Source of the DNA: Chloroflexota bacterium
GTDB lineage: Bacteria; Chloroflexota; Anaerolineae; UBA1429
NCBI GenBank assembly: GCA_019873625.1
Contig: JAIOAW010000003.1
Span: 39,675-103,674 of the forward strand
Reading direction: 5' to 3'
DNA: 64,000 nucleotides
This document shows, piece by piece, positions 1,497 to 58,068 of the stretch. The notes beneath the pieces are model-generated. The model made no database searches. It saw only the letters and a list, made by a program, of their open reading frames with translations, and had not been told where the DNA came from. A program made the position numbers and the translations under genes. Numbering within the stretch: the stretch's first letter is position 1; the number at the start of each line of letters is the position of its first letter.

Positions 1497-2423
1497 GTGG
1501 CACAGGAGATTGCGGTCAAAGGGCGGCGCCTCAATTTACGCCAGCGCGAATCGCTCGTGGGGTTCCTTTTTTGCCTGCCGTGGCTTATCCACTTTACGTT
1601 GCTCATCGCCGGGGCGATGATTTTTTCGTTCGTGATCAGCCTGAGCCGAACGGATTTGTTGACGGGTTGGAAGTTCATCGGCTTTCAAAACTATAGTAAC
1701 CTTTTTAAAGATTTTCTCTTTTGGAAATCCCTACGAGTAACTGCTTATTACACTTTTCTCGTAGTGCCTTTGGGGATAATTTTGGCGCTTTCCATCGCGC
1801 TGTTACTTAACAGCAAGGTGGTAGCCTTTTTAGGGTTTTGGCGGCTAATCTATTATCTCCCCTCCGTGGTTTCTGGAGTTGCCGTGGCCATCTTGTGGAT
1901 GTGGGTGCTCAACCCGCGTTTTGGCCTGCTCAATGCGACCCTCATATCGCTCGGCGTGAAAAATCCACCGCGCTGGCTATATTCAGAGGAATGGGCCATT
2001 CCGGGGTTCGTCTTGATGGGCCTCTGGGGGGCAGGCGGCGCGATGCTCCTTTATCTGGCTGGCCTGCAGAGCATCCCAACGCACTTGTATGAGGCAGCCG
2101 AGATTGACGGGGCGGGGAGTTGGGCCAAGTTCTGGCGCATCACGCTGCCTATGTTGACGCCCACCATTTTCTTTAACTTGATTATGAGCATCATCGGATC
2201 TTTCCAGGTTTTTACGCAAGTCTATGTTATGACGAACGGGGGACCTAACAATGCGACCTTGACGATGGTGTTCTATCTATACCGTTTGGCGTTCCTTGAA
2301 TTTAAATTCGGCTATGCCTCTGCGTTAGCCTGGGTATTGTTTTTCATTATCTTGTTCTTTACGATGCTGGTCGTCCGATCCTCTGCCGCTTGGGTGTATT
2401 ACGAGGGAGAATTGAGGAAATGA
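1497..2423 (+). CDS. Carbohydrate ABC transporter permease (MalF/UgpA-like).
   Basis: The gene starts with GTG, 6 nt after AAAGGAGGG. It has six predicted transmembrane segments and an EAA-like loop (EAAEIDGAGSWAKFWRITLPM). Its stop overlaps the start of the next permease (ATGA). Confidence 0.9.
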   Translation: MAQEIAVKGRRLNLRQRESLVGFLFCLPWLIHFTLLIAGAMIFSFVISLSRTDLLTGWKFIGFQNYSNLFKDFLFWKSLRVTAYYTFLVVPLGIILALSIALLLNSKVVAFLGFWRLIYYLPSVVSGVAVAILWMWVLNPRFGLLNATLISLGVKNPPRWLYSEEWAIPGFVLMGLWGAGGAMLLYLAGLQSIPTHLYEAAEIDGAGSWAKFWRITLPMLTPTIFFNLIMSIIGSFQVFTQVYVMTNGGPNNATLTMVFYLYRLAFLEFKFGYASALAWVLFFIILFFTMLVVRSSAAWVYYEGELRK

Positions 2424-4142: not shown

Positions 4143-4167
4143 CCCCGCCCGATTCGCAAAAAATAAA

Positions 4168-4194
4168 AGCGCCCCCGCATATTACGGGGGCGCT
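4168..4194. terminator. Bidirectional intrinsic terminator between two convergent genes.
   Basis: The stem is agcgcccccg-catatta-cgggggcgct. An A-run lies upstream and a T-rich run downstream. It sits between the isomerase (+) stop and the glycyl radical enzyme (-) stop. Confidence 0.75.
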
Positions 4195-4207
4195 TTGCTT
4201 ATAAACG

Positions 4208-17704: not shown

Positions 17705-19489
17705 CTAGCACTGGGGGCCTTTCGCGGGCTCCGCCGTGCGCACGAGTTTCAAGGCCCAATCGTCGTCATCGGGCTTGGGGGGTAGGGCGATTTCCCCATC
17801 GGCATTGGCCCTCAGGGTAAAAGGCTCTCCCCAAGCGCCGGTGCGCGGGTCAAACCAGCGCGCCGTGTACTCGCCCAGGTGCGCGGCGCCCCGCAGGCGC
17901 ACGGCGGGGCATTCCGCCTCAAAATAGACCATAAACAGGTCTCGTTCGGGCGTGCGCGCGCAATAGGCCCAGCCCACGTTCCCTTCGAGTTGATGCGTCC
18001 GGTTGGGCTCGACGAGGTCGGCGATGGGCACGAGATCCTGAAAGCGCGGCCCTTCGGACCATACGAAATCGTAAAAGTAGCGCATTTGCGTGCCAGAAGG
18101 CCACTGGAGGCTCTCCCACATCTGGTACGGCGCCTCCGGTTCGATATCGCCGCCCCACAGGCCGCCGGCGCCGTAGATGTGCCCGGCCAGCCCGCCCGAA
18201 AGAAAACTCCCGTACGCCCCCGAACGGCAGTAGCGCGCCGTCTCCGCCGTGCCGGGGATGACGCCCGGCGGCCAGCCCACGTCATAGGGGCTGCTCAACG
18301 CGTCATAATACGGTTCGCCGTTGAGGGCTGGCTTGGGCGGCTTGGATTCGAAAAAGATCTCGGTCAACAACCAGTGGCTGTTGTGGTGCCGCCGGTTGCC
18401 GATTTGGTGCAAGGTCAACCAAGGGGCCTCGTCGGAGTTGCCAAAGTTATTTAGGCTGGAGCCGGCCGCGTTGCACGAAAGGAGCGTGCCAAAGGCCGGC
18501 ACGCCTTTGGCCACCACGGCGTTGGCCGCCGCGTTGAACGCCCGCGAAGGGAGGGTGGCGTGGCCGTAGTCGAAATGGATGGGGCTGAGGATGACGTTAT
18601 TCGCCTGGTAACGCGCAAAGACGTACTCTACATAGCGGGCGTAGGAATCCGGCCAGCCATAGTACTTGGCCCAGACGGCCATACCGTCTCGTCGGGCGGC
18701 CTCGATGAAGGGGATGAACCCCTGGGCGTTCAGGTAATCCACCTTGCGATCCATATATTGAAAGTAGGCCGGGTTGATGCGGTTCACATCGGGGTAGACG
18801 TGTTCATAGCCCGGCACCTTGCCAGGGAAGAGGAAAGGACGGCCGCCCTCGTTATGCATATCCTTGGCGCTTTGAGTGCCAGCCTGGCGCCAGGCGGAGC
18901 GCAAAAAGGTGCCATCGGTCAGTTCGATGCGGTGGGGATGGCCGTCATTAGCCCAATTGGGGAAGGCCGCAATCATCGCGATGCAGTTGTACCCCTGGGC
19001 CTTGCGGTAGCGCACCATATCTTTGAAGCCCATCTCCGGGCCGATGGGGCGTTCGAGATCGTCGTCATCCCAGCGAAAGCGATGGGTGGGCACGGCCCAC
19101 CAGGTATCGCCGAGCAGAAAGCAGGGCGTGCCATCGGCGTATTCCAGGGCGTGGCCGCTCGGCGTGGGGCGCAGGAATCCACGCCGGCAGGGATTCGCGG
19201 CGAGTTCCTCCTCGCTCCAAGGGATGGCCTCAAAGCGCCCCGATTGACCACTGAGGCCCGGGTCCTCCGTGTTCGAGCCGCTCTCCCAATGCCATTCGCC
19301 GGGAGAGGTGGCCACCAGCCGCACGCGGAAGGTTCGGCCACCATCCCAAAAGCCATACACGCGCCGTTCAAAGCCAGGTCCTTTGAGGTTTACCCACACC
19401 TCGACCTCGGTGTAGGGGTTATCGTAATTTCCCTCGGCGTTCAGGGTGATTTCGACCTTCTCCCAAGGGTGGAATAGCCCAGAAGACAT
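17705..19489 (-). CDS. DUF5060/DUF4038-type putative glycoside hydrolase (GH140-like).
   Basis: The N-terminal beta-sandwich reads FHPWEKVEITLNAEGNYDNPYTEVEVWVNL...RVYGFWDGGRTFRVR, followed by a TIM-barrel-like body. The start is the ATG at 19489 preceded by AAGGAGG. The assignment rests on domain-pattern memory only. Confidence 0.4.
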   Translation of the reverse strand: MSSGLFHPWEKVEITLNAEGNYDNPYTEVEVWVNLKGPGFERRVYGFWDGGRTFRVRLVATSPGEWHWESGSNTEDPGLSGQSGRFEAIPWSEEELAANPCRRGFLRPTPSGHALEYADGTPCFLLGDTWWAVPTHRFRWDDDDLERPIGPEMGFKDMVRYRKAQGYNCIAMIAAFPNWANDGHPHRIELTDGTFLRSAWRQAGTQSAKDMHNEGGRPFLFPGKVPGYEHVYPDVNRINPAYFQYMDRKVDYLNAQGFIPFIEAARRDGMAVWAKYYGWPDSYARYVEYVFARYQANNVILSPIHFDYGHATLPSRAFNAAANAVVAKGVPAFGTLLSCNAAGSSLNNFGNSDEAPWLTLHQIGNRRHHNSHWLLTEIFFESKPPKPALNGEPYYDALSSPYDVGWPPGVIPGTAETARYCRSGAYGSFLSGGLAGHIYGAGGLWGGDIEPEAPYQMWESLQWPSGTQMRYFYDFVWSEGPRFQDLVPIADLVEPNRTHQLEGNVGWAYCARTPERDLFMVYFEAECPAVRLRGAAHLGEYTARWFDPRTGAWGEPFTLRANADGEIALPPKPDDDDWALKLVRTAEPAKGPQC

Positions 19490-19503
19490 AGGGTGATCCT
19501 CCT

Positions 19504-20304
19504 TCACGTGGCGAGCCATCCGCCATCCACCACCAAGACGTGCCCATTGACAAAGTTCGAAGCCTCCGAGGCTAAAAACACGATGGGGCCGAACAAGTCA
19601 TCCAACTCGCCGATGCGCTTCATCGCGATGCGGCTCAGCACCCAATCCATCGTCTTGGGGTCATCGAGCACGGGCGCGGACATCGCCGTGCGCGTGAAGA
19701 CGGGCGCCAGCGCGTTCACGTTGATGCCCCGTGGCCCCCACTCGATGGCCATCGAATGGGTCAACTGGTTCACCGCTCCTTTGCTCGGGGCATAGGCCGC
19801 GTCATGCAGGCGCCCCTGGAAGGCGCGCACGGAGGAGATATTGATGATCTTCCCCTTACCCTGTTTGAGCATCACGCGGGCCACGTGCTTGCAGCACAAA
19901 AAGACCGATTTGACATTTACGTCCATCACGCGTTCCCAGGCCGCCGTATCGAATTCCTCGATGGGCTGGAGGTGCACCACGCCTTGGCTATTCACCAAGA
20001 TGTCAATACGGCCAAAGGTGTCGAGCATATAGTGCACCATCGCCTCTACCTGGGCCTCGTCCGTCACATCGGCGGCGAAAAAGGCGCCCCGGCGCCCCAG
20101 GCTTTGGATGGCCTTGGCCGTCTCTTCCAGGCCGGCCGGCCCTCGGCTCGCCACGCAGACGTCGGCCCCGGCGGCGGCCAGGGCGAGCGCCATCGCTTGG
20201 CCCAAGCCCTTCGTCCCGCCCACCACGAGCGCCACTTTGCCATCGAGGCGAAAGCGGTCCAAAGTCGAAGGGGCAAGCGCAAGGATCTTTTCCAAATCGG
20301 ACAT
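19504..20304 (-). CDS. Short-chain dehydrogenase/reductase (KduD/gluconate-5-dehydrogenase-like).
   Basis: The cofactor-binding motif is GKVALVVGGTKGLGQAMALALAAAGADV. The catalytic SxnY-xxxK triad and the typical PG motif are present. Confidence 0.85.
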   Translation of the reverse strand: MSDLEKILALAPSTLDRFRLDGKVALVVGGTKGLGQAMALALAAAGADVCVASRGPAGLEETAKAIQSLGRRGAFFAADVTDEAQVEAMVHYMLDTFGRIDILVNSQGVVHLQPIEEFDTAAWERVMDVNVKSVFLCCKHVARVMLKQGKGKIINISSVRAFQGRLHDAAYAPSKGAVNQLTHSMAIEWGPRGINVNALAPVFTRTAMSAPVLDDPKTMDWVLSRIAMKRIGELDDLFGPIVFLASEASNFVNGHVLVVDGGWLAT

Positions 20305-20324
20305 ACCAACCCTCCCAAATGGTT

Positions 20325-20340
20325 TTGATAGAATAGGGGG
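20325..20340. promoter_or_regulatory. Conserved upstream motif, copy 1 (TTGATAGAATAGGGGG). It lies 24-35 nt upstream of the short-chain dehydrogenase ATG.
   Basis: The 12-mer ATAGAATAGGGG is identical to that at 24694-24705. On the sense strand of the downstream gene it reads CCCCTATTCTAT. Confidence 0.5.
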
Positions 20341-20388
20341 CAGAGCGCCGCCCGAGCCGGACTCTGCCCCCCGAGGAGAAGGTCCCCC

Positions 20389-21285
20389 CTAACGCCCAGT
20401 GATGCCCGTCATCACCACGCCTTTAAGGAAATAACGTTGGCCGAAGAAGAAGATGATGATCATCGGCAGCGTGAGGTAAAAGGCGGCGGCCATATTCAGG
20501 TGATACGAGGCCAAATAGGGGTCCACAAAGGCCCGCAGGCCCAAGGCGAGCGTCTTTTTCTCTTCGGAAAAGAGGTAGATGAGCGGCCCCATAAATTCGT
20601 TCCAGTGCCCCACGAAGGAAAAGATGCCGATGGCCGTAAGGACGGGTGCGTTCAACGGGAGCATAATGCGCAACCAGATGGTCCAGTTATTCGCGCCGTC
20701 AATGCGGGCGGCGTCATCGAAATCGGTTGGGATGGTCAGGTAGAACTGCCGCACGAGGAAGATATTATACGCACCCCCGCCAAAATAGGAAGGGACGATC
20801 AGCGGGAGGAAGGTATCGAGCCAGTTAATCGTCTTGAATAGGATGAAGGTGGGGATCATCGTGACGATGCCGGGCAGCATCATCGTGGCAAGGAGCAGGC
20901 CAAAGAGAAAGCCCCGCCCAGGGAAGCGCAGGCGCGCGAACCCAAACCCCACCATCGAACTGGAGACAAGGGTGCCCAAGGTGGCGCTCACCGTGACGAT
21001 GAAGGTGTTGCTCAACCAACGCAGGATGGGGGCTACGGAGAGCACCTCGATATAGTTCTGCCACATAATAGGCCGGGGAATCCATATCGGCGGGTTAGCA
21101 AACACCTGGCCCTGCGTCTTGAGGGAGGTGGAGAGCATCCAGGCGAGCGGCACCATAAAGATGGCGCTCAGTACGAGCATAATGATGTATAGGAAGAAGC
21201 GCTTGACGTAATAGGGCCAAGGCTTCAACCGCCCGCCCAACGCCCTTTTGGCGGGCTGCATTTCAGTTGCTGTGGCTGTGGCCAT
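20389..21285 (-). CDS. Carbohydrate ABC transporter permease (MalG-like).
   Basis: Six transmembrane segments. The signature is DDAARIDGANNWTIWLRIMLPL. Confidence 0.9.
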   Translation of the reverse strand: MATATATEMQPAKRALGGRLKPWPYYVKRFFLYIIMLVLSAIFMVPLAWMLSTSLKTQGQVFANPPIWIPRPIMWQNYIEVLSVAPILRWLSNTFIVTVSATLGTLVSSSMVGFGFARLRFPGRGFLFGLLLATMMLPGIVTMIPTFILFKTINWLDTFLPLIVPSYFGGGAYNIFLVRQFYLTIPTDFDDAARIDGANNWTIWLRIMLPLNAPVLTAIGIFSFVGHWNEFMGPLIYLFSEEKKTLALGLRAFVDPYLASYHLNMAAAFYLTLPMIIIFFFGQRYFLKGVVMTGITGR

Positions 21286-21290
21286 CCGAC

Positions 21291-22238
21291 TCAGCCTCCT
21301 TCGTAATAGACCCAGGTTTCCGCGAGCCGCAATTGGATGATCGTAAAACCGAGGATGATAAAGAACAGCAGCCAGGCCAGCGACGAGGCATAGCCCATAT
21401 TGAACTGCTCGAACGCGAGCCGGTAGAGGTAAAGGACGGTGAACAACGTCGAGTTGGCCGGCCCACCCGCCGTCATCAAGAAGGCGCCCGTGAATACTTG
21501 GAACGAGCCGATGATGCCCATCACCACGTTAAAGAGCATCACGGGCGAGAGCATCGGCATAGTCACGTGCCAGAACTGCGCCCAAGCGTTTGCCCCGTCA
21601 ATCTGGGCAGCCTCATAGAGCGACTGCGGGATGTTCTGCAGCCCGGCGAGGAAGATGATCATACGGTTCCCACCTGCACCCCAGAGGCTCATCAGGACGA
21701 AGGTGGCCTTGGAGGTCTTGGCGCTCCAAATCCATTGCGAAGGCGGCAGGCCGATGGCTTTGAGGACCATATTCGCCAGGCCCACTTCAGGGTTCAGAAT
21801 CCAGAACCAAACGATGGCCGAGGCCACGGCAGGGGTGAGCGAAGGCATATAGAAGAAGGTGCGGAACCAGGCCCGTCCATACATCTCTTGGACGCATAAC
21901 AGCGCCAAGATGAGCGAGGCGATGATCCCCAGCGGCACGCTGAGGAAGGTATAGTAAGCCGTGTTCCACAGAGAGATGCCGACGAAACGGTCGGCAAACA
22001 GTTGGCGGATATTCTCCAGCCCCACCCATTCGGGGGGCATAAAAAGGTTCCAACGCGTGAAGGCAAGCCAAAGCGAGGCGAGCATTGGCCCGGCCGTCCA
22101 AAGGATGAACCCCAACAGCCAAGGGAAGATAAAGATGTAGCCGTCTATGGCTTCTCGGATGGCTAGTTTGGAACGGCGCCTTTTGCCCGCTGCCTTGGCC
22201 AGCATGCCGGCTTGCGGCACGCGCGTTACGGTGGCCAT
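21291..22238 (-). CDS. Carbohydrate ABC transporter permease (MalF-like).
   Basis: The permease signature is EAAQIDGANAWAQFWHVTMPM. The likely start is ATG (MATVTRV) preceded by AGGAGGG. Confidence 0.85.
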   Translation of the reverse strand: MATVTRVPQAGMLAKAAGKRRRSKLAIREAIDGYIFIFPWLLGFILWTAGPMLASLWLAFTRWNLFMPPEWVGLENIRQLFADRFVGISLWNTAYYTFLSVPLGIIASLILALLCVQEMYGRAWFRTFFYMPSLTPAVASAIVWFWILNPEVGLANMVLKAIGLPPSQWIWSAKTSKATFVLMSLWGAGGNRMIIFLAGLQNIPQSLYEAAQIDGANAWAQFWHVTMPMLSPVMLFNVVMGIIGSFQVFTGAFLMTAGGPANSTLFTVLYLYRLAFEQFNMGYASSLAWLLFFIILGFTIIQLRLAETWVYYEGG

Positions 22239-22371
22239 TCTGTCGTTCCCTCCTGATCCATTTTGCCCGGACACTAAGGCTGCAATGAGCAGAGGGGGAC
22301 CGCTGCTCTGCCTCATCTGCAATCGAGGCAGAGCAGCGGGTTCCTGCGCATCTACTCGCGGTGCCCGGCCA

Positions 22372-23850
22372 TTACCACTTGGCCTCGGCCAAGACCTTAT
22401 CCGCCTCTTCCTTCATCTTGCGGGCCGCGCCGGCCACATCTTCGGATTGGCACGTGAAGACAGGATCCAGGTACGTGGAGTACAGTTGCTTGAGTTTGCC
22501 CATCCCCACGGGCGCCTTCATAGCGATCCGCTTGAGAGGGCCGGTGTAGTCGGTCTTCCACGGCTTGATGTGGACGTCCGCATAGTGCTCGGGGATGCCG
22601 TCCGTCGGCGCAATCACATCCAGGATATTCGGCCGGTTGACGCTCCAACGCTTCTGCTCGCCGATCCACTTTTGGATTTCCTCGCTGGTGAGGAACTTGA
22701 CCAACCGCCAACCCTCTTCTTTGTGCGCCGCCTTGGCCGTTACGCCAAAGGCCGAGCAGGCCGCTGGCGCATACTGGCCGAAGGGGCCAGCGGGCAGAGG
22801 CGTTACGTCATACTTGAACTGCACCGCCTCTTGCTTGGCAAAGAAAGTGTTCTGCTGGTGGTCATACTTCATCGCCACGAGGCGGGCGTTGCGCCACAAG
22901 TCGCCCTGGCCCACGGCCTGCGCAGGGGTGGGCATACAGTTGATGACACAACGCAGTTTGCGGCACAGTTCCCAATACTGGATGACTGCGTCGCTATCAA
23001 AGTTGGAGGTCTTCATATCCGGCTCGAACCAGTGCTTGCCGAAGGCGTTGACGAACCCCGCCGGGATATCGGCGGCCATGGTCGGATCCACCCAGGCGCA
23101 ACCGAAGACCTTGATCTTGGTCTTGTCGAACTTGGGATCATTGGCGGGGCGGCCGTTCTCGTCTCGCGTGAGGAGCGTGGCCGTCTCGACAAAGTCGTCA
23201 ATCGTCCAGGTGAGCGACGGATAGGGCACGCCGTACTGATCGAACATATCCTTGTTGTAGTAGCAGCCGTACAGCGCGCTATCTTTGGGGATGAGGTACT
23301 GCTTGCCGCCGTGGGCGAACTCGTCCATCAGTTCGATAATGAAATCCTCGCGCTTGATCCCATCGCGCTCCATATACGGCATATGGTCAATGAAGGCGCC
23401 GTTGTAGATATAGTCCATCGCGATGGTCCAGTGCGCGTGGCATACGTCGGGCGTTACGCCAGCGGCGAGCACCGTCGGCAGTTTCGTCATATAGTCGCTC
23501 CAGGATTCGAAACTGACGTTCACCCGAACGTCTGGGTTCTCATCCATAAAGCGGTAGATAAAGTTCGTGTACATCGTGCGCTCGAGGCCCACGCCTGCGG
23601 GGGTGAAGAAATCAATCTGCACCTTCTCTTTGGGCGTGGCTTGCACGACCTTGGTGACCTCCACGACCTTTTCCACCACTTGGGGCGTGCCTTGGACGAC
23701 GACGGTCTCTTTGACCACCTCTTGGACGACCTTGGTGACCTCGACGACCTTTTCTACCACTTTGGGCTGGCAGCCCGCCAAGACGGCTGCGCCGAGGCCA
23801 ATACCGGATAGGCGTAGCAACTGTCGGCGAGAAATCTTGTCGGTGAACAT
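22372..23850 (-). CDS. ABC transporter substrate-binding lipoprotein with a Tat signal.
   Basis: The N-terminus is MFTDKISRRQLLRLSGIGLGAAVLAGC (a twin-arginine motif plus lipobox). A repetitive (KVVEVTKVVQ)n linker leads into the binding-protein family-1 body. Confidence 0.85.
   Translation of the reverse strand: MFTDKISRRQLLRLSGIGLGAAVLAGCQPKVVEKVVEVTKVVQEVVKETVVVQGTPQVVEKVVEVTKVVQATPKEKVQIDFFTPAGVGLERTMYTNFIYRFMDENPDVRVNVSFESWSDYMTKLPTVLAAGVTPDVCHAHWTIAMDYIYNGAFIDHMPYMERDGIKREDFIIELMDEFAHGGKQYLIPKDSALYGCYYNKDMFDQYGVPYPSLTWTIDDFVETATLLTRDENGRPANDPKFDKTKIKVFGCAWVDPTMAADIPAGFVNAFGKHWFEPDMKTSNFDSDAVIQYWELCRKLRCVINCMPTPAQAVGQGDLWRNARLVAMKYDHQQNTFFAKQEAVQFKYDVTPLPAGPFGQYAPAACSAFGVTAKAAHKEEGWRLVKFLTSEEIQKWIGEQKRWSVNRPNILDVIAPTDGIPEHYADVHIKPWKTDYTGPLKRIAMKAPVGMGKLKQLYSTYLDPVFTCQSEDVAGAARKMKEEADKVLAEAKW
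23647..23765. repeat. Two near-identical 39-nt direct repeats (36/39 identity) inside the linker region of the binding-protein gene.
   Basis: The two copies are gaccttggtgacctccacgaccttttccaccacttgggg and gaccttggtgacctcgacgaccttttctaccactttggg. On the minus strand they encode QVVEKVVEVTKVVQ twice. Confidence 0.7.
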
Positions 23851-23953
23851 ACTCCTCTCCTTTACCTTCTAGGCCGTAGAGCACTCCAAACCGTTCATGA
23901 GATGAGAATTCGCTTTGCTCCACCTCCTTTCTGCTCGCGTGAGCCTGCCCGCG

Positions 23954-24676
23954 TTACTTGAACTGGGCGTAATAGGCCTCGACCTTTTCCACGTCCACCG
24001 TTTCATCCATCGGCAGGCCCAGGCGCTCGTACAGACGGCGGCGGCCACGCATATCGGCGAGGAGGATGGCGATGGCATGCCGCGCCACTTCTTCCGCCAA
24101 ATCCGAAGGCACCACGATGACGCCGTCATCGTCGCAGCCGACGATGTCTCCAGGGCGCACCTGGGCGCCGCCGCAGGCGATGACCGTGTTCGCCTCCACC
24201 TCCATAATGCGGCCGGGGATGATGGTGCGGCCGCGCTTGCGGCAGGCGACGGGCGTCTTCTGCAGGCACACCTCGTAGGTATCGCGGCAGTAGCCATCCG
24301 TGACGATGCCCACGGCGCCGGCGGCGATCATCGCGAGCGAGTTGTTAGACCCCCAATACCCCACCTCTTTGGATTCGCCCGTATCCGTGACGATGACGCA
24401 GCCCGGGGTGATAAGTTCGCGCAGATGCACGGGGCTGGGGTACTTGGCATACCAGTGGGCATGGTCGCGGACGATATCCTCGGTCGTTTCGAGTTTCCAC
24501 ATCGGCCGGTTCGAGGGCACACAACGCAGGGTAACGGCTGGCCCCCAGAACTTCATACCAGACCAGAGGGGGCGGATCTCGGGGGACATCAGGCCGATGT
24601 CGAAATAGCCAATGCCGTCCATCGCGTCGGCCACGTCCACCACTCGCAAGTACTTGTACAGGTCTACGACGTTCAT
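23954..24676 (-). CDS. RraA-family protein, paralog 3.
   Basis: The pattern is GCVIVTDTG...GYWGSNNSL...GAVGIVTDGYCRDTYEV. Overall similarity to the gene at 12060-12800 is clear. Confidence 0.7.
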   Translation of the reverse strand: MNVVDLYKYLRVVDVADAMDGIGYFDIGLMSPEIRPLWSGMKFWGPAVTLRCVPSNRPMWKLETTEDIVRDHAHWYAKYPSPVHLRELITPGCVIVTDTGESKEVGYWGSNNSLAMIAAGAVGIVTDGYCRDTYEVCLQKTPVACRKRGRTIIPGRIMEVEANTVIACGGAQVRPGDIVGCDDDGVIVVPSDLAEEVARHAIAILLADMRGRRRLYERLGLPMDETVDVEKVEAYYAQFK

Positions 24677-24691
24677 TCTCCACTCCTGCCT

Positions 24692-24707
24692 TTATAGAAT
24701 AGGGGCC
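24692..24707. promoter_or_regulatory. Conserved upstream motif, copy 2 (TTATAGAATAGGGGCC). It lies 18-29 nt upstream of the RraA paralog 3 ATG.
   Basis: It shares the 12-mer ATAGAATAGGGG with copy 1, in the same position relative to the start codon. Confidence 0.5.
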
Positions 24708-24892
24708 AGGTTTTGCGTCACGGCCCCGCGTGACCGGGGGATGTGCCCTAGGCGCCCCAAGGGCGCACGTAGACCGAAAGGCGGCCCCAAAGGCCGTTAG
24801 GCATTTTAGGGCCTTTCTCCTATAATCATTGTAGCAGGTTTTTCAATAAATGAAGCGTCAAGTTGAGGACAATTACAGGCCAAAGAGGGGAC

Positions 24893-26149
24893 ATGCTCCA
24901 CGATGAGACGTTGCTCCGGGCGCTTCGCTCGGCCTTGCGCCACCTTTATGAGACGCCGGCCCTCCAGGAAAACGCCCTGGTGGAGTATTTCGGCTTGGCC
25001 GGTTCGCCCAACGCGGCGTCGGAGTTGAGGCGCATCCTCATCGAGGCCATCCGTTCGCTCCAGCCGGAGGATACGGTGCCGGCGGATGCCGAAATCTGGC
25101 GCGTGTATGAAATCCTCCAGTATCGCTATGTGCAGCAGTGTACCCAGGCCGAGGTTGCGCGCCAGTTAGGGCTGAGCATCCGGCATTTGCGGCGCGAGGA
25201 GATGCGCGCCGCCGAGGTGCTTGCCCTGGCCCTCCAAGCGCGGTGGGAGAAGGAATCCGCCCAGCAGGGCGAACCCGCCGAAGGGAGAAACGATTCCTTC
25301 GCCAAGGAGTTGGCCTGGCTAGAACAGTCGCCCGCCCACGAACAGTTCGACCTTTGCGCCCTGCTCGAGGCCCTTGGGGAACTCGTGCGACCTATGGCGC
25401 AAGCCCACCATACGCGGGTCGAGATGGCTCTCCCGGAGGCCCCTTGTGAAATCCTCTCTCAACCTGTGGGGTTGAGGCAGATCGTCCTGAGCCTCCTTAC
25501 TTTGGCCATCGATCGCGCCGTAGGGGGGAGTGTACACGTGAGTGCGCAACCGCACCAAAGGCACGCACGCCTGACGCTTACGGCGGAGGGCACCGGCACA
25601 ACGTGCGCTAGCAGTCCCCCCGATGCGCGAGAGCACATCGCTATGGTCGAGCGGCTGGCCCGCCTGTGCGGGGCCAAGGTGGAGGTGACCCTGAGGGATG
25701 GGGCCTTCCAGGCCGTGGTGGACCTCCCCATTCCCCAACAAATCCCCGTCCTGGTCATTGACGATAACCAAGATACCTTGCGCCTTCTGGAGCGCTACGC
25801 GGCCGACACGCCCTTTCGCCTGATGGGGGTGCGCGATGTGGAGCAGGCCTTTCAAGTGGCCGCGACTACCCCGCCGAGCATCATCGTGCTTGATGTGATG
25901 ATGCCCCGCGTAGATGGTTGGGAAGTGCTGGGGCGGCTCAGGCAGCACCCCCTGACCTGCCGCACGCCGATTATTGTGTGTACGATTCTGGCCCAGGAGG
26001 AACTGGCGCGCTCTCTGGGCGCGAGCGATTATCTTCGTAAGCCACTGTCTCGAGAGGCCTTTCTGAAGGCTCTGGAGCGCCAGTGCGCTCTGGCGGGGCC
26101 AGAAGGGCCGTCAAAGCCTCTGTACAGCGCAAGAACTCCTGCAGGCTGA
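24893..26149 (+). CDS. Response-regulator-like protein with an unusual architecture: a sigma70 region-4-like helix-turn-helix, a histidine-kinase-like ATPase segment, and a C-terminal receiver domain.
   Basis: The helix-turn-helix is WRVYEILQYRYVQQCTQAEVARQLGLSIRHLRR. The canonical receiver is PVLVIDDNQD...LDVMMPRVDGW...SDYLRKP. The ATG at 24893 is preceded by AAGAGGGG; a TTG lies at 24863. Confidence 0.55.
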   Translation: MLHDETLLRALRSALRHLYETPALQENALVEYFGLAGSPNAASELRRILIEAIRSLQPEDTVPADAEIWRVYEILQYRYVQQCTQAEVARQLGLSIRHLRREEMRAAEVLALALQARWEKESAQQGEPAEGRNDSFAKELAWLEQSPAHEQFDLCALLEALGELVRPMAQAHHTRVEMALPEAPCEILSQPVGLRQIVLSLLTLAIDRAVGGSVHVSAQPHQRHARLTLTAEGTGTTCASSPPDAREHIAMVERLARLCGAKVEVTLRDGAFQAVVDLPIPQQIPVLVIDDNQDTLRLLERYAADTPFRLMGVRDVEQAFQVAATTPPSIIVLDVMMPRVDGWEVLGRLRQHPLTCRTPIIVCTILAQEELARSLGASDYLRKPLSREAFLKALERQCALAGPEGPSKPLYSARTPAG

Positions 26150-28250
26150 TTCCCCCGCCGCGCGTCACGTTGAGAAAACTCGTGGCATAGCCTCCCGGCG
26201 CGGCATCGAGCGCGGAGATGGCGATGACGGGAATATCGCGGATGGCCTCCTCTTGGCGCTTTTGCCTGAGCACGGCGAACCCATCCATCCCCGGCATAAT
26301 GAGGTCCAAGAGCATCACATCGGGCCGCCGCGAGCGCAAGAGCGCCAAGGCGCGTTCGCCGCTCGTGGCGCGGTAAATCTGGTAGCGGCGTTCCCCGGTC
26401 GAGAGCATACGCCCAAAGAGTTGCAGGGCCTCGGGGTTATCGTCCACCAAAAGGATGGATTTCACGCCGTTGGGGATGCGATCCAGCGCGGCCAAGAGAT
26501 CCTCTTGCTGGATGGGCTTGAGCAGGTAGGCCACGACGCCGAGGTGGTCGGCGGCCTCCTGCTTTTCTGGGATGAAGCAATGGATGACCGGCGTGCCGAA
26601 GGGGAGGCGCGCGGCCGTGCTGACATCCTCTAGCCCCTCGGGGGGCAGGGCCTCGTTGATGAGGAGCGCCCGCGCCGGCACGCGCGAGACCTCCCGGATG
26701 GCCTCTTCCAGTGTGTGCACGGGGGCGACTTCTACCTCTGGCTCGTGGCGGGCCAGGATGCGCTTGAGCGTATCGGATGGCTCCAGCACCACCAGGCGGG
26801 GCCGTACGTTCGGCTGGGGCGCCTGCGAGGGCCGCGTGCGCGGCTCATAGGTTTGATAAGGGTTGAACCAGCGCATCCCCTCGCGCACGGGTAAAGGGGC
26901 GAGCACGTCGAGGGGCAGCCGAGCGTAAAAGGTGGAGCCCTTGCCGGGTTCGCTTTCCACCCACATCTTGCCGCCGTGGAGTTCCACAAAGCGCCGGCTG
27001 ATGGCCAACCCCAGGCCAGACCCCCCATATAGGCGGCTGATGCTCCCATCATACTGTTCAAATGGCTCGAAGATGCGCTCCTGATCCTCTTTGGGGATGC
27101 CTGGCCCCGTATCGGCCACGCTGATGACCATCGTTTGGTCTTCTACGCGCGCGCGGACGTGGGCGCCGCCCCGTTCGGTAAAGCGCCCAGCGTTGCTCAA
27201 GAGGTTGATGATCACCTGGCGAATGCGCGTCTTGTCGCAATACACGAGGGGCAACCCTTCCGGCACGTCCATAGTCAGCGAGAGGCCTTTGGATTGGAAG
27301 AGGGGCATCACAGCGGTGAGGGCCGATTCGACGATCTCGCGCATCGAGACCTTTTCTCTCACCAAGGCCAGCCGGCCGGCCTCGGTGCGGCTCAGGTCGA
27401 GCACATCATCTACCAGGCTGGCCAGGTGCTTGCTGTTGCGCTGGATGACCTCGATATCCGCCAGGAGTTGCGGCGGCAGTTCGCGGCCGTAAAGGCGCGG
27501 GTTCTGGGTGATGATCTCGCTGAAGCCGATGATCATATTGAGGGGCGTGCGCAGTTCGTGGCTCACGTTGGCCACGAATTCCTCTTTGGCGCGGCGGGCC
27601 TCCTCGGCCACGCGGTACATCGCCCGCAGCCGATCGGAGATGCGCGCCAGTTCGGCATTGGCCTGGTTCAAATCCTGCTGGACCTCTTTGAGATGGAGCC
27701 GCTGCGTGCGCGCCTCTTCCAAGAGGGCGCGCATATAGTCAAAGTTCGCCCAAGACCATTGCGTGCTCGTCTGCGCAAAGCGGAGCGCCACCCACACCAC
27801 TCCCCACGTAACCCAGACCATCTCGATGGCCACGAGGTGCGAAAAGGCCAGGTCTCGCCGCAAAAGAAAGAGGGTCAAGAGGGCAGCGAGCACCGCGCCA
27901 TAGGCCGGGCCTGAGGCAAGTGCCGCCAGCCCTACGGGCAGGCCGATGAGGCCCAGGATCATCAGGCTCCCTTGCTGCCAGGCGGCCAAAGGCAAAATGG
28001 TGTAAAAGACGATGAGGAGCCATAGGCAGAGGTTGGGGTGCTGGCGCGTGAGGAGCCAAATGCCAAGCGGCACGAGGAGGATGAGCATCCCCAACGCGCT
28101 GGTGCTCGCCTCGAAGCGGCGCATCTCGGCCAAAAGGATGAGCAATTGCCCAAAGACCAGGGAACCGATCACGGCCAGGCCCAGGGCGCGCGAACGCGTT
28201 TCTTCGCGCATCTCTTGGTAGAAATCTGCCCGCGAACCCAATTCCAGCAT
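25971..28250 (-). CDS. Hybrid sensor histidine kinase (transmembrane sensor, HisKA, HATPase, a degenerate receiver and a canonical receiver).
   Basis: The H-box is [10 protein letters not shown]. The G-boxes are DTGPGIP and [18 protein letters not shown]. The receiver is [10 protein letters not shown]...[10 protein letters not shown]. The C-terminal 60 codons overlap the 3' end of the convergent regulator gene. Confidence 0.85.
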
Positions 28251-37097: not shown

Positions 37098-37137
37098 TGT
37101 TCTGAAAATATTCTATGCGACGTAAAGGGGTAGCCGA

Positions 37138-38370
37138 ATGACTGTGGTAACCAGTGGGCCGAACCTCGCCTGGCTCGATGAGGAACTCCGCAAAGAGAAA
37201 GCCCTCGTTGAAGAACTGCGCAACCTGGTGGATAAGCAGCAGGTGATGCTCGTGGACCAAACCCAGCGCATCCTTGCGCTGGAAGATCGCCTGACGAAAC
37301 TGCAAGGGCAGTTGGGGCGCATTGGCGATGTGGAAGAGGCCCTTCAGCATACGCGCGATGAGATCGTCCTGCTCGTCTCCGAGATGAAGCAGGATTTCCA
37401 AAAGCGCGAGACAGAATCTCTTCGCCTACGCCAGGCCGAGAGGGAAAAGGACCAAAAGACCATCCAGGAGATTCTGCTCGCCCTTGACCGCATCGCGCCC
37501 CTTGAACAGGCCCTGGCCGTGCGCCAGGCCGAAGATCAGCGCTTGAACGAGGCGATTTTGCGCCTCCAGCAGGACGTGCAATCCCTGGCCAAACTGCCCA
37601 GCGCGGTGGAGGAGTGGCGACGCCAGTTGGCCGATGGGATTGCAAAGAATACCGTCGAGATTCGCCAGACGCAGGGGGAGATGGCCGAACTCCGCAAGGC
37701 CCAACAGGAAAGCGCCTCGCGGTTGCTCGTGGTCAACGATGCACTGGCCAAGGTGGAGCAGGCTGTCGCCGAACTACAGGTGATGCGCCAGGAGATCGCG
37801 GCCCAGCAGGAGCAGATGGCCGAACGCCAGCGGCGCGAGGATCGTTCTCGCGCCCAGACGATGACGGAGTGGGGCCGCCGCCTGGACGGTTTTGCCCATC
37901 AGATGGAGGCCTGGGCCGATCAACTGCGCCTATTTGCCGATCAGCACGAAAAGAACCGCCGCGTGTTGAGGGATATCCAGTCCCTCGCGCAAGAGGTCAG
38001 CCAACAGCAGGATCGGCTCCAGCAGTTGCAGCGCCTGGCCGAGGAGCAACTGCGCCGCGAAATGCGCGAGATGCGCGGCGAGAATGATCGCCGTTGGGCG
38101 CAAGAGATGGAACGCCGCGAGCAGATTTTAGCGGCCCAAGCCCAGCGCGATGACGCCCAAGACCTTCGGCTGACCGATCTCGAGCAGGGCCACGAAGATC
38201 ACACCGCCGCCCTGGCTAGCCTGGAGGAACGGTTGGCCGCCCTGCGCACCGAGTTGGAGGCCTTGGCCGCGCGTCAGCAGCGCTTCCACCGGCAGGTCCT
38301 GCAAGCCTTCCAAAAACAGATGGAGGCGTTCGTGGCGCAAGCCATTGCCGACCTCGGCCCGGAGGGGTAA
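37138..38370 (+). CDS. Long coiled-coil protein (rich in Gln, Glu, Arg and Leu).
   Basis: 410 aa with an almost continuous heptad-like pattern. No enzymatic motif is visible. Its stop lies 2 nt before the selB GTG. Confidence 0.5.
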   Translation: MTVVTSGPNLAWLDEELRKEKALVEELRNLVDKQQVMLVDQTQRILALEDRLTKLQGQLGRIGDVEEALQHTRDEIVLLVSEMKQDFQKRETESLRLRQAEREKDQKTIQEILLALDRIAPLEQALAVRQAEDQRLNEAILRLQQDVQSLAKLPSAVEEWRRQLADGIAKNTVEIRQTQGEMAELRKAQQESASRLLVVNDALAKVEQAVAELQVMRQEIAAQQEQMAERQRREDRSRAQTMTEWGRRLDGFAHQMEAWADQLRLFADQHEKNRRVLRDIQSLAQEVSQQQDRLQQLQRLAEEQLRREMREMRGENDRRWAQEMERREQILAAQAQRDDAQDLRLTDLEQGHEDHTAALASLEERLAALRTELEALAARQQRFHRQVLQAFQKQMEAFVAQAIADLGPEG

Positions 38371-44798: not shown

Positions 44799-45962
44799 TT
44801 AGGGCTGCGGGCAGGCTTGGGGATCGTACGGCTGCCCCTCTTCGAGCACGCCCCGCACGATGAGCATCCATTCGCTGATGGGGATGTTCTGTGGGCATTT
44901 CGGCTCACAGGTGCGGCACTGGATGCATGCCGAGGCACGCCTCTCTTGAGAGAAAAAGCGCGCATAGAAACGCCGCGTCTCCTCGATTTGGTTGAACATC
45001 ACAGCGTTGTTAAATGTCGTGAAATTCTCGGGGATATCCACGCCGTTGGGGCAGGGCATACAGTAGTGGCAGGCCGTGCACGGGATGGGGCACAGCGAAC
45101 GGTAGCGGTCGCGGGCGCGATGGATCGTCTCCAGTTCCTCTGGGGTGAGCGTGCCCACGCCCGAGCGTTCGGCGCTGGCCACGTTCTCGATGACTTGTTG
45201 GAGGGTGCTCATCCCGCTCAAGACCACCGAAACCTCCGGCTGGTTCCACAGCCACTGGAGTGCCCAGTCGGCGGGCGTGCGCCGCACGGGGGCTGATTCC
45301 CACACTTCTTGGACGGCCGGCGGCGGGGTGACGAGCCTCCCGCCCAAAAGCGGCTCCATAACCACAACGCCCATCCCTTTCGAGGCGGCATAGCGCAGGC
45401 CCCGCGTGCCCGCCTGGTATTCCTCGTTCATATAGTTGTATTGGATTTGGCACATATCCCAATCGAAGGCATCCACGATCTCGCGAAAGGCCTCGAACGT
45501 ATCGTGGAAGGAAAAGCCCGCCAGGCGGATGCGCCCTTCGCACCGCTTTTTATCTAAAAAGTCGAGCACGCCCAGATTGTATGCGGCCAGCCAACGTTCG
45601 CGGCGCAGGCCGTGGAGGAGATAACAGTCGAGGTGATCCGTCTGCAAGCGTTCCAACTGCTCGTTGAAGAGGCGGTCAAAATCCTCGTACGTTTGCGCGG
45701 CGGGCAGCCACAACTTGGTGGCCAGCACCACGCGGTCGCGGCGCCCTTGGAGGACGCGCCCCAGGAATCGTTCGCTATTGCCCCCATGGTAGCCGTAAGC
45801 CGTATCGAAATAGTTCACGCCGTGCTCGATGGCGTAATCCACCATACGGGTCGCCTCGGGTTCATCAATCACATCGTGCGTGCCGCGAATCGGCAAGCGC
45901 ATACAGCCGAACCCCAGCGCCGAAACGCGCACTCCAGAACGCCCTAATACACGGTACTGCAT
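44799..45962 (-). CDS. Aldo/keto reductase fused to a 2x[4Fe-4S] ferredoxin domain (paralog of 28329-29420).
   Basis: An aldo/keto reductase barrel is followed by CPIPCTACHYCMPCP and CIQCRTCEPKCP. The ribosome-binding site is AGGAGGTG. Confidence 0.7.
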   Translation of the reverse strand: MQYRVLGRSGVRVSALGFGCMRLPIRGTHDVIDEPEATRMVDYAIEHGVNYFDTAYGYHGGNSERFLGRVLQGRRDRVVLATKLWLPAAQTYEDFDRLFNEQLERLQTDHLDCYLLHGLRRERWLAAYNLGVLDFLDKKRCEGRIRLAGFSFHDTFEAFREIVDAFDWDMCQIQYNYMNEEYQAGTRGLRYAASKGMGVVVMEPLLGGRLVTPPPAVQEVWESAPVRRTPADWALQWLWNQPEVSVVLSGMSTLQQVIENVASAERSGVGTLTPEELETIHRARDRYRSLCPIPCTACHYCMPCPNGVDIPENFTTFNNAVMFNQIEETRRFYARFFSQERRASACIQCRTCEPKCPQNIPISEWMLIVRGVLEEGQPYDPQACPQP

Positions 45963-46034
45963 CGGACACCTCCTATCGGTGATGAGTCAAAGAGCGCCCC
46001 TCTTTTATATTCCATTTTGCCCGCCTAGGCAAAG

Positions 46035-46063
46035 GCAAAGCGCTTGACGTTCGAACGCTTGTT
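46035..46063 (+). promoter_or_regulatory. Sigma70 promoter TTGACG-17-TATACT, with a Cheo-type LexA SOS box CGAACGCTTGTTCG (46043-46056) inside the spacer.
   Basis: Read directly from the sequence. The box is a perfect match to CGAAC-N4-GTTCG. It lies 33 nt upstream of the first helicase-like gene. Confidence 0.65.
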
Positions 46064-46095
46064 CGCTATACTGCGCGCACTGATCAGGTGGAGAA

Positions 46096-51356: not shown

Positions 51357-52133
51357 TCAGATGAGGAGGTCTTGTAGGCGATTAGCGCGTTTGATGAACG
51401 TGCCGGCCTCCACTTGTTCGCAGCCCCGTGCGAGGTAGGTTTGGGCATCTATATGGCCGCAGGTGCGGATCTCTTGCGTGTAGGGCGGCCCCGCGATGAC
51501 GAAAGGCGCGACCTCGCGATAGTGCGCGGTGGCCTCCGCGGCCACATCGCGGATGAGGTCGCGGGCATCTTCCGGGGCCAAGTGAAGGGCCACCTGCGCC
51601 CCCAGGCCGATCTTGACCTGCGCGCCATAGATGCCTGGGATGAGGGCACGCGCCTCGGCCATCATCTTGTCATCGCCGCTCACAAAGACGGTGGGCACGC
51701 CGAAACTCCCCGCCAGGGCCGCACGGCAGCCGAATTCGCCCAACTCTAACCCATTGATGCGGTACCAGAGGATGGTCGTGGAGGAGTAGGTGTGGGCCAG
51801 GTTTGCGCCGGGCGTGCCGGCCTTGGCGTGCTGGCCGAGGAAAAAGAGGGCGTCAAAAGTCTCATCCAAAAAGGCGGGCGGGGAGACGGGGCCGTTGTTG
51901 ATGAGTTTGGCGCCCCGTGGGAAGCGCTCGAAATCTATCGAGCCGCAGCCGTGGGCATCCCACACCCAGATTTCGCCGGATGGCTCCACGGCCTGAATGC
52001 CCGCGACGCAGGCGCGGAGTTCCTCCGTCATAAGGCGCACGGCCTGCGGGTAACCGGGGGTATCTCGCCCGGTTTGATCCCAGCGGGCCACACCGGCTAC
52101 CCCTTCGAGATCGGTGAGGATATAGATTTTCAT
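51357..52133 (-). CDS. M55-family D-aminopeptidase (DppA-like).
   Basis: The N-terminus MKIYILTDLEGVAGV is typical of DppA. The ribosome-binding site is AAGGAG. Confidence 0.7.
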   Translation of the reverse strand: MKIYILTDLEGVAGVARWDQTGRDTPGYPQAVRLMTEELRACVAGIQAVEPSGEIWVWDAHGCGSIDFERFPRGAKLINNGPVSPPAFLDETFDALFFLGQHAKAGTPGANLAHTYSSTTILWYRINGLELGEFGCRAALAGSFGVPTVFVSGDDKMMAEARALIPGIYGAQVKIGLGAQVALHLAPEDARDLIRDVAAEATAHYREVAPFVIAGPPYTQEIRTCGHIDAQTYLARGCEQVEAGTFIKRANRLQDLLI

Positions 52134-52301
52134 CTCGCGCACTCCTTGGCGTTTTGCCCTATTCTACCAGCGAACGGCTCGCCCGTCAGCCACGAAAACT
52201 CGTGCGCCCCCAGCGCATCGCCGGTGGTCAATAGGGGCTTCTTTCGACAAAATGCGGCGCCTATGCTACCCTACGGGGCAAACGCCTGAGGAGTTCGGAA
52301 A

Positions 52302-58040: not shown

Positions 58041-58068
58041 TTGACAACCCTATGGGCGCTATTATAAT
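58041..58068 (+). promoter_or_regulatory. Consensus sigma70 promoter TTGACA-16-TATAAT upstream of dprA.
   Basis: Read directly. It lies 34 nt upstream of the ATG. Confidence 0.6.

Follow-up and report, generated by a model that had tools for sequence, protein, structure and literature searches.

A repeated intergenic 12-mer in an Anaerolineae sugar-acid gene cluster: probably a coincidence of two different junctions

Results

Gene context and position of the two copies

This study concerns an AT-rich 12-mer, ATAGAATAGGGG, that occurs as two exact copies in a 64,000-nucleotide (nt) stretch of DNA from a Chloroflexota bacterium of the Anaerolineae (lineage UBA1429; assembly GCA_019873625.1, contig JAIOAW010000003.1, positions 39,675 to 103,674 of the forward strand; hereafter the window). 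Comparison with relatives suggests that the copies probably do not represent one discrete regulatory motif, copy 1 belonging to a terminator-like tail and copy 2 to a promoter or leader block. Both lie in a minus-strand gene array that runs, in order, through genes for an RraA-like protein, a solute-binding protein, two permeases, a KduD-like short-chain dehydrogenase (SDR), an apiosidase-like glycoside hydrolase (GH), a pentapeptide protein and GH2, and continues with a 2-hydroxyacid dehydrogenase, two RraA-like proteins, Ldh_2, a 3-hydroxyisobutyrate-dehydrogenase-like protein, PCC, Zn-ADH and a BadF-type ATPase. Directly upstream of the first RraA-like gene stand a hybrid histidine kinase gene and a gene for a protein with a REC domain, the latter divergent from RraA, and this synteny is kept in the related contigs L001-L003. 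The nearest species-level genomes, also Anaerolineae (Chloroflexota), show 77-78% amino-acid (aa) identity in the binding protein; two contigs derived from the Sequence Read Archive match the window itself, at 99.98% (L013, assembled from run SRR16606022) and 98.4% (L014).

The first-pass annotation had described the 12-mer as an exact duplicate in intergenic DNA, both copies pointing the same way with respect to the minus-strand gene that follows, and this description is borne out (Table 1). On the sense (minus) strand both copies read CCCCTATTCTAT. Copy 1 sits in the 84-nt spacer between the second permease gene and the SDR gene, copy 2 in the divergent region between the RraA-like gene and the REC-domain gene. 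From the 12-mer to the ATG there are 23 nt at copy 1 and 17 nt at copy 2, roughly in accord with the 18-35 nt initially given, and the TATTCT hexamer within it lies 25 and 19 nt from the respective ATG. Similarity between the copies extends to 17 of 19-20 positions, CTG[C/G]CCCCTATTCTAT[C/A]AA. Direct inspection of CTGSCCCCTATTCTATMAA found no internal dyad or direct-repeat symmetry except a trivial TA..TA. The core TATTCTA does read TANNNT on both strands (TATTCT/TAGAAT); TATTCTA/TAGAATA is found at both copies and at 52160-52166, and four of the five TATTCTA heptamers in the window are intergenic.

Table 1. Positions of the features discussed, in window numbering unless a related contig is named
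Feature	Coordinates	Strand	Remarks
SDR/KduD-like gene	19504-20304	-	ATG at 20304; downstream of copy 1
Second ABC permease gene (permease-2)	20389-21285	-	stop codon 20389-20391
RraA-like gene	23954-24676	-	ATG at 24676; downstream of copy 2
REC-protein gene	24863-26149	+
Hybrid histidine kinase gene	25971-28250	-
Copy 1 of the 12-mer	20328..20339	-	CCCC(U) is the end of the stem-loop 3' arm, UAUUCUAU the U-rich tail
Copy 2 of the 12-mer	24694..24705	-	17 nt before the RraA-like ATG; TATTCT at 24701-24696
Shine-Dalgarno GGGAGGG of the SDR gene	20310..20316	-	conserved in L015
Strong GC-rich stem-loop GGGGGGCAGAG...CTCTGCCCCC(U)	20335..20372	-	after the permease-2 stop; 3' arm ends in the motif's CCCC
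First small hairpin GGGGGGA/UCUCCUC	20373..20389	-	shares one base, the last, with the permease-2 stop codon
Stem B GGGGCC-N14-GGCCCC	24702..24727	-	copy 2 supplies its 3' arm, CCCC; in centroid folds of the window and of L023
Hairpin A/palindrome GTCAC-N8-GTGAC	24717..24734	-	19/20 positions kept in L023
Distal extended -10 TGCTACAAT	24828..24836	-	toward RraA, about 150 nt upstream
TATAAT -10 of the divergent REC-protein gene, TAGGCA-N17-TATAAT	24821..24826	+	sigma-70 scan
Hairpin GGATCTCG-N4-6-CGAGATCC, then TGNCGAACATAGAAAGGAG	L001 7523-7545; L002 8311-8335; L003 7530-7549		conserved; some 30 nt before the first RraA ATG
Third copy of CCCTATTCTA	52157..52166	+	minus strand: TAGAAT -10 and AGGG of a canonical promoter
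Promoter CTGACG-N17-TGgTAGAAT	52189-52161	-	scanner-called; 25 nt before the Peptidase_M55 ATG (52133-52135)
TATTCTAT octamer	37109..37116	+	between two same-strand genes 40 nt apart; the ATG at 37138 follows after 21 nt
13-mer CGGGCAAAATGGA	22257-22269 and 46011-46023	-	longer than the 12-mer; a shared word of at least 13 nt in about 3% of shuffles
Stem-loop GCTGCTCTGCCTC-N10-GAGGCAGAGCAGC	22302-22337		perfect 13-bp stem
Bidirectional intrinsic terminator AAAGCGCCCCCG-N7-CGGGGGCGCTTT	4166-4196	both	between convergent genes; T/A runs on both sides
Promoter TTGACA-N17-TATGAT	6534-6506	-
Promoter TTGACG-N17-TAGGAT	17664-17636	-
Promoter TTGACA-N16-TATGAT	44793-44766	-
Promoter TTGACG-N17-TATACT	46044-46072	+
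Promoters TTGACA-N16-TATAAT	57415-57388 and 58041-58068	- and +

Copy 1 at the permease-SDR junction

In the sense RNA, the permease-2 stop codon is followed by two hairpins, and UAUUCUAU comes directly after the second. The 96-nt spacer folds with -43.8 kcal/mol (z = -2.19), and a terminator scan calls the site terminator-like (GGGCGGCGCTCTGCCC + CCTATTCTAT); with 5 U in 8 the UAUUCUAU tail is above the scanner's threshold and weaker than that of the canonical terminator at 4166-4196. The close relative represented by L015-L019 (SDR 95% identical in aa) keeps both hairpins: changes in the arms retain pairing while the loop differs (z = -2.05), and the first small hairpin reads GAGGAG/CUCCUC at the equivalent place, again with pairing retained. 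The motif itself has become CCCTTTCTATTA (the site reads GCCCTTTCTATTACA), the TA of TATTCT being deleted, so that TANNNT is gone on both strands; the counterpart of the U-rich tail is UUUCUAUU. Retention of the stem-loops with loss of TANNNT suggests that the feature conserved at copy 1 is a stem-loop with a pyrimidine- or U-rich tail, not a -10 box. In the 86% relative L020, the permease-2/SDR spacer is only about 30 nt long and has neither hairpin nor motif; in L022 it holds other hairpins, followed by CTTTATATT.

From this comparison with one independent relative we infer that copy 1 is the 3' arm and U-rich tail of a terminator-like stem-loop. Such a stem-loop might act as a partial intrinsic terminator or as a 3'-end stabiliser closing the transporter genes, and would separate them from an SDR gene inserted downstream in this lineage, which would then be expressed largely by read-through. 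As in intrinsic terminators and the stem-loops of ABC operons, a GC-rich stem follows the stop codon and leads into a U-rich tract, the stem being kept and the loop variable. Unlike in intrinsic terminators, the tail is interrupted and the loop is 13-16 nt long, whereas the terminator at 4166-4196 has much longer T runs.

The SDR gene itself looks like a mobile insertion when the window is set beside L001-L004, L020-L022, L031 and L032. Between the permease and GH genes it is absent in L001-L003 and stands alone in the window, L015, L020 and L022; in L004, L021 and L031 it is found behind a PCC gene as a PCC-SDR pair. L001-L003 have no SDR gene at all. P0006 and P0007 carry SDR genes in other contexts and yielded no further permease-2/SDR junctions. 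The tandem RraA paralogues before the solute-binding-protein gene also vary in number, from one in the window to two or three in relatives.

We also considered whether the window spacer is homologous to the spacer of L004, and rejected this: only the short words GCGCTCTGCCC and CAAAACCA are shared, and the TATTCTAT part is absent. A REP-like family built on the arm word GGCAGAG/CTCTGCC was likewise rejected, its 15 matches being mostly coding. The same words recur in another stem-loop (22302-22337); it stands in the 133-nt spacer that follows the solute-binding-protein gene, where ABC operons classically have hairpins that stabilise or attenuate.

Copy 2 in the RraA-proximal region

The near relative represented by L023-L026 has an RraA-like protein 98% identical in aa, and an intergenic region (186-190 nt) only 62% identical to that of the window, in which three blocks are kept. 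The distal block, CTGCTACAATGATTATAG, contains TATAAT on the plus strand and TGCTACAAT on the minus strand; the middle block, GGTCAC[G/T]CGGGGCCGTGACG, is the palindrome of hairpin A; and the proximal block is TGGCCCCTAT[T>C]CTA. The variant L014 (98.4%) has copy 2 unchanged, and the near relative has CCCCTATCCTAA there (site GCCCCTATCCTAATA), with TATTCT altered to TATCCT, still a TANNNT, and TAGAAT on the opposite strand to TAGGAT.

Two structures adjoin or include this copy. Stem B, with six GC pairs and a 14-nt loop, has both arms identical in L023 and hence offers no covariation, its loop having diverged; the folding energy at copy 2 is ordinary (z = -0.05 to 0.28). Hairpin A and stem B are mutually exclusive as RNA, and as DNA hairpin A would lie at about -45 to -28 from TATTCT. 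Farther upstream, use of the distal TGCTACAAT promoter would place copy 2 inside a 5' leader of about 145 nt. Equivalents of this extended -10 (TGnTANNNT in the RraA direction) occur in L001 (TGATACCAT) and L003 (TGCTAACAT), and in L027 and L029 TGCTACAAT itself, after a proper -35, precedes RraA homologues. The TATAAT of the REC-protein gene and TGCTACAAT stand side by side and face each other, each predicted start falling within the other's -10; this facing pair is kept in the near relative, and similar pairs are seen in L001-L003.

The more distant orthologues L001-L003 and L030 have no motif, and TATTCTA was not found at the orthologous loci of L001-L004. What they have before RraA is another hairpin (GGATCTCG-N4-CGAGATCC or GGGGGTCA...TGAGCCCC), followed by GTCGAAYA and a Shine-Dalgarno (SD) sequence. 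An A>G change in the 3' arm of the GGATCTCG/CGAGATCC hairpin in L001 retains a G-U pair in RNA and breaks the DNA dyad, which hints that this hairpin is an RNA-level element in L001-L003; L030 and the window have different hairpins in its stead.

Taken together, copy 2 fits a weak proximal -10 or a leader element. It might be a weak proximal -10, possibly bidirectional and possibly aided by a factor bound to the adjacent GTCAC-N8-GTGAC palindrome; alternatively, a transcript starting at the conserved distal TGCTACAAT promoter might have a leader whose 3' end is copy 2.

The two sites compared in the near relative

If the two copies served one sequence-specific function, they would be expected to have stayed alike. 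In the window they share the 12-mer and 17 of 20 positions; in the near relative, by comparison, the two sites have no longer word in common than an unrelated 6-mer, and agree at 12 of 20 positions in the best 20-nt window. The sites have thus drifted independently, and neither a shared sequence-specific signal nor a common operator finds support. Judged from these comparisons, only the strain lineage of the window has two copies identical to the letter, and they would not be under joint selection.

Chance and signal

The recurrence of the 12-mer had been considered very unlikely by chance. This is true only for a word specified beforehand (two occurrences in 0 of 100 shuffles). Dinucleotide shuffles yield 716 ± 37 distinct 12-mers that recur, and the window 1,589-1,599; of recurring 12-mers as AT-rich as ATAGAATAGGGG, shuffles yield 14.6 ± 4.4 and the window 34. 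Given that 15.5% of AT-rich 12-mer positions are intergenic, 0.35-0.8 AT-rich pairs with both copies intergenic are expected by chance, and one was observed, namely ATAGAATAGGGG. We then applied a position-aware test to the 80 nt upstream of the 32 genes having an upstream gap, counting matches in the same orientation only: 13% of shuffles produced a shared word of at least 12 nt, and 1 of 40 attained the 17/20 window match. With p roughly 0.03-0.13 overall (about 0.13 for the 12-mer, about 0.03 for 17/20), the statistical case for a shared motif is suggestive at best.

Since TATTCTA reads TANNNT on both strands, the gathering of such AT-rich words in intergenic DNA has a ready explanation, and promoter-like regions can share words more easily than uniform statistics imply. 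Two other upstream regions, those of the first permease gene and the gene at 44799-45962, have an unrelated exact 13-mer, CGGGCAAAATGGA, in common. Three copies of the 10-mer CCCTATTCTA are present in the window, always in intergenic DNA; we rejected this triple as a signal, since in 17% of shuffles some 10-mer is also found three times, as are two GC-rich 10-mers of unrelated sequence in the real window.

Other occurrences

The third CCCTATTCTA copy lies in the promoter of the Peptidase_M55 gene, which is unrelated in function to the genes behind copies 1 and 2, and is in the opposite gene-relative orientation. The TATTCTAT octamer upstream of a further ATG, also reported before, does exist at the distance of 21 nt then given, at the position in Table 1 and not at 37107-37114. 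Within the gene cluster, the four remaining intergenic gaps lack the 12-mer even when two mismatches are allowed; in the whole window, matches with up to two mismatches comprise, besides the two copies, one coding site, the oppositely oriented peptidase site and one site in the 45963-46095 intergenic region, at a great distance from the island.

A 17-nt consensus, GSCCCCTATTCTATMAA, was scanned against a collection of public metagenome contigs that does not include the source genome. There were at least 120 matches; those listed range in GC content from 0.28 to 0.69 and stand in heterogeneous, unrelated contexts, many of them coding, and none of the contigs listed resembles the window flanks. 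Among the matches listed, L093, L124 and L140 (about 0.41-0.42 GC) and L084, L111, L137 and L143 carry the 17-mer within tandem arrays of units of about 20 nt, for example AGCCCTATATTCTATCAAA; these are iteron-like repeats of unrelated AT-rich contigs, possibly plasmid or phage origins, and have no relation to the window. In the unrelated contigs L114, L120 and L119, also among the matches listed, GGCCCCTATTCTAT(C/A)AA stands directly before an SD and ATG, and in L120 it follows a GGTCC...GGACC hairpin; the generic build of hairpin arm, AT tract and SD that these share with the window is probably convergent.

A dispersed repeat of the REP or MITE kind was rejected: the copies are alike over about 20 nt only, the hairpins beside them are different, and no related family appeared among the metagenome matches listed. 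An Rfam search of the whole window gave no match at gathering score, and all matches of a permissive search had 17-18 bits against thresholds of 33-154.

Promoters, terminators and local regulators of the genome

The genome uses canonical promoters of the TTGACA-N16/17-TATAAT type and terminators consisting of a hairpin plus a T run, above shuffle expectation. Promoter-like sites number 10 versus 4.5 and 8 versus 3.6 in window and shuffles, respectively, and the textbook terminator at 4166-4196 establishes the use of canonical terminators in this Anaerolineae genome. A literature search for Chloroflexota promoter or transcription-start-site maps returned nothing directly usable.

It had also been stated that the island encodes no obvious transcription factor. 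With a conserved kinase and REC-protein pair beside RraA, this statement is not safe, although the helix-turn-helix (HTH) match in the REC protein is weak. The protein has 418-428 aa, with a C-terminal REC domain and an N-terminal region of roughly 290 aa containing a sub-threshold match to a sigma-70 region-4-like HTH. In all close relatives the kinase and the REC protein keep synteny with the RraA/ABC operon, and the REC protein diverges much faster (44-47% aa identity) than its neighbours (77-83%). We regard it as a candidate local regulator of unusual predicted architecture.

Discussion

We moderately favour the view that there is no discrete shared regulatory motif here, and that the identity of the two copies is a coincidence between two intergenic junctions, one ending in the tail of a terminator-like stem-loop and the other part of a promoter or leader block. 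Both junctions would have the same generic build, in which the C-rich 3' arm of a GC-rich hairpin is followed by a short U/A-rich tract, an SD and the start codon. Several observations weigh against this view. A 17/20 match combined with the same orientation and a similar distance to the start codon is somewhat unusual, being matched in only 1 of 40 shuffles, and ATAGAATAGGGG is the sole AT-rich recurring 12-mer in the window with both copies intergenic. At copy 2, 10 of the 12 motif positions are kept in the near relative as compared with 62% identity of the whole intergenic region; a block better kept than its surroundings points to a probable function of this site, possibly as a -10. At copy 1, no more than 5 of the 8 tail positions are U and the main stem is long-looped, so that terminator activity there is a reading of the structure.

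Let us consider, then, that both copies are -10 elements (TATTCT) for the housekeeping sigma factor, forming proximal promoters with very short leaders, one of them driving the RraA/transporter operon and the other, internal, driving SDR with the hydrolases behind it. We judge this unlikely, yet there is a certain amount to be said for it. TANNNT lies at a distance from the ATG comparable to the 25-26 nt of well-formed promoters in the window (the 51357 and 46096 genes), the TATTCTA heptamers are mostly intergenic, copy 2 remains TANNNT in the near relative, and the array does have internal promoters, such as TTGACG-N17-TAGGAT. The resemblance to sigma-70/sigma-A -10 and extended -10 (TGnTATAAT) elements extends to both strands of the core and to the canonical promoter with TAGAAT at the third site. 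However, the gene-sense strand has neither a -35 of at least 4/6 at 16-18 nt (best 2-3/6, by eye) nor a TG extension at -15/-14, and neither copy is called in a sigma-70 scan of 19400-25000. The hexamer matches the consensus at 4/6, whereas other promoters here reach 5-6/6 with a good -35. Moreover, copy 1 loses its TA in the 95% relative and the element is absent in L020, while at copy 2 the leader would be only about 12 nt long with the SD at its 5' end, and a better, conserved extended -10, TGCTACAAT, is available farther upstream. The proposal of a -10-like element with a short leader, made in the first-pass annotation, hence remains plausible for copy 2 but fares poorly at copy 1.

A more elaborate scenario, which we consider rather doubtful, would make the RraA-proximal block of hairpin A, stem B and TATTCTA a lineage-specific control element of the sugar-acid/ABC operon, acting either as an antiterminator/terminator switch in the TGCTACAAT leader or as a -35-less, possibly bidirectional promoter activated by the REC protein, with copy 1 a recently arisen second instance of the same terminator or promoter tail.

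The functional strand might instead be the plus strand, with T(G/T)ATAGAATAGGGG serving as an extended -10 followed by a G-rich discriminator, at copy 1 antisense to the 3' end of the permease gene, at copy 2 with a long leader toward the REC gene, or with TANNNTA firing in both directions. On this strand TAGAAT matches the consensus at 5/6, copy 1 has TGn (TGATAGAAT), the same TAGAATAGGG is part of the scanner-called promoter at the peptidase gene, and copy 2 remains a TAGGAT in the near relative. In bidirectional promoters described by Warman et al., the sequence TANNNTA allows positions 2 and 6 of opposed -10 hexamers to pair across the strands (bioRxiv 10.1101/2020.01.31.928960), a geometry that TATTCTA matches, and copy 2 is indeed in a divergent region. 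Unlike in those promoters, there is nothing to transcribe on the opposite side of copy 1, where the plus strand has neither a gene nor a known RNA downstream and Rfam is empty; and at copy 2 the divergent gene has its own promoter (TAGGCA-N17-TATAAT) 120 nt away. In addition, copy 1 becomes TAGAAA without TG in the close relative, and the scanner calls neither copy as a promoter on either strand. We consider this possibility improbable.

Slightly less credible still, in our estimation, is the idea that both copies are tails of terminators or attenuators, stem B and UAUUCUAU forming at copy 2 a terminator within a leader of approximately 145 nt before RraA, with hairpin A as the antiterminator. 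In its favour, CCCC closes a GC stem as its 3' arm at either copy and leads into UAUUCUAU, the overlapping hairpin A and stem B are both kept in the near relative, a conserved distal promoter is present, and more distant orthologues, too, have a hairpin just before the SD. But the fold at copy 2 is no better than that of shuffles, the 14-nt loop of stem B is followed by a poor U tract that is poorer in the relative (UAUCCUAAUAU), covariation is lacking as the arms are identical, the upstream leader is unconserved and has no Rfam match, and the orthologous hairpins of L001-L003 and L030 have no U tail.

Finally, that the motif serves as operator for a transcription factor co-regulating two units of the sugar-acid island, encoded elsewhere or identical with the adjacent REC protein, as had in part been proposed, is very improbable: two near-identical 17/20 sites in one orientation upstream of genes in one catabolic cluster do recall the operators of KdgR- and GntR-type regulons, and a two-component pair is syntenic with the operon, but unlike those operators the sites lack a dyad and an identified cognate regulator, are missing from the other four gaps of the cluster and from the orthologous positions of L001-L004 and L030, have diverged independently in the near relative, have a third copy in reverse orientation at an unrelated peptidase gene, and differ in their surroundings, the conserved neighbour of copy 2 being the palindrome GTCAC-N8-GTGAC, which is missing at copy 1.

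A shared motif, if true, would give a handle on regulation in uncultured Anaerolineae, and the evidence is not supportive of one; nothing at either site falls outside the known kinds of bacterial intergenic signals. With hundreds of recurring 12-mers in a 64-kb window of 63% GC, an exact 12-mer in front of two neighbouring genes is by itself no evidence of a regulon. The case calls for caution, since AT-rich words concentrate in the small intergenic fraction of such DNA, where promoters, terminator tails and ribosome-binding regions converge on few patterns. The actual features of this locus would rather be a stem-loop that punctuates an ABC-transporter operon at the site of an SDR insertion and a promoter or leader block beside a two-component system.

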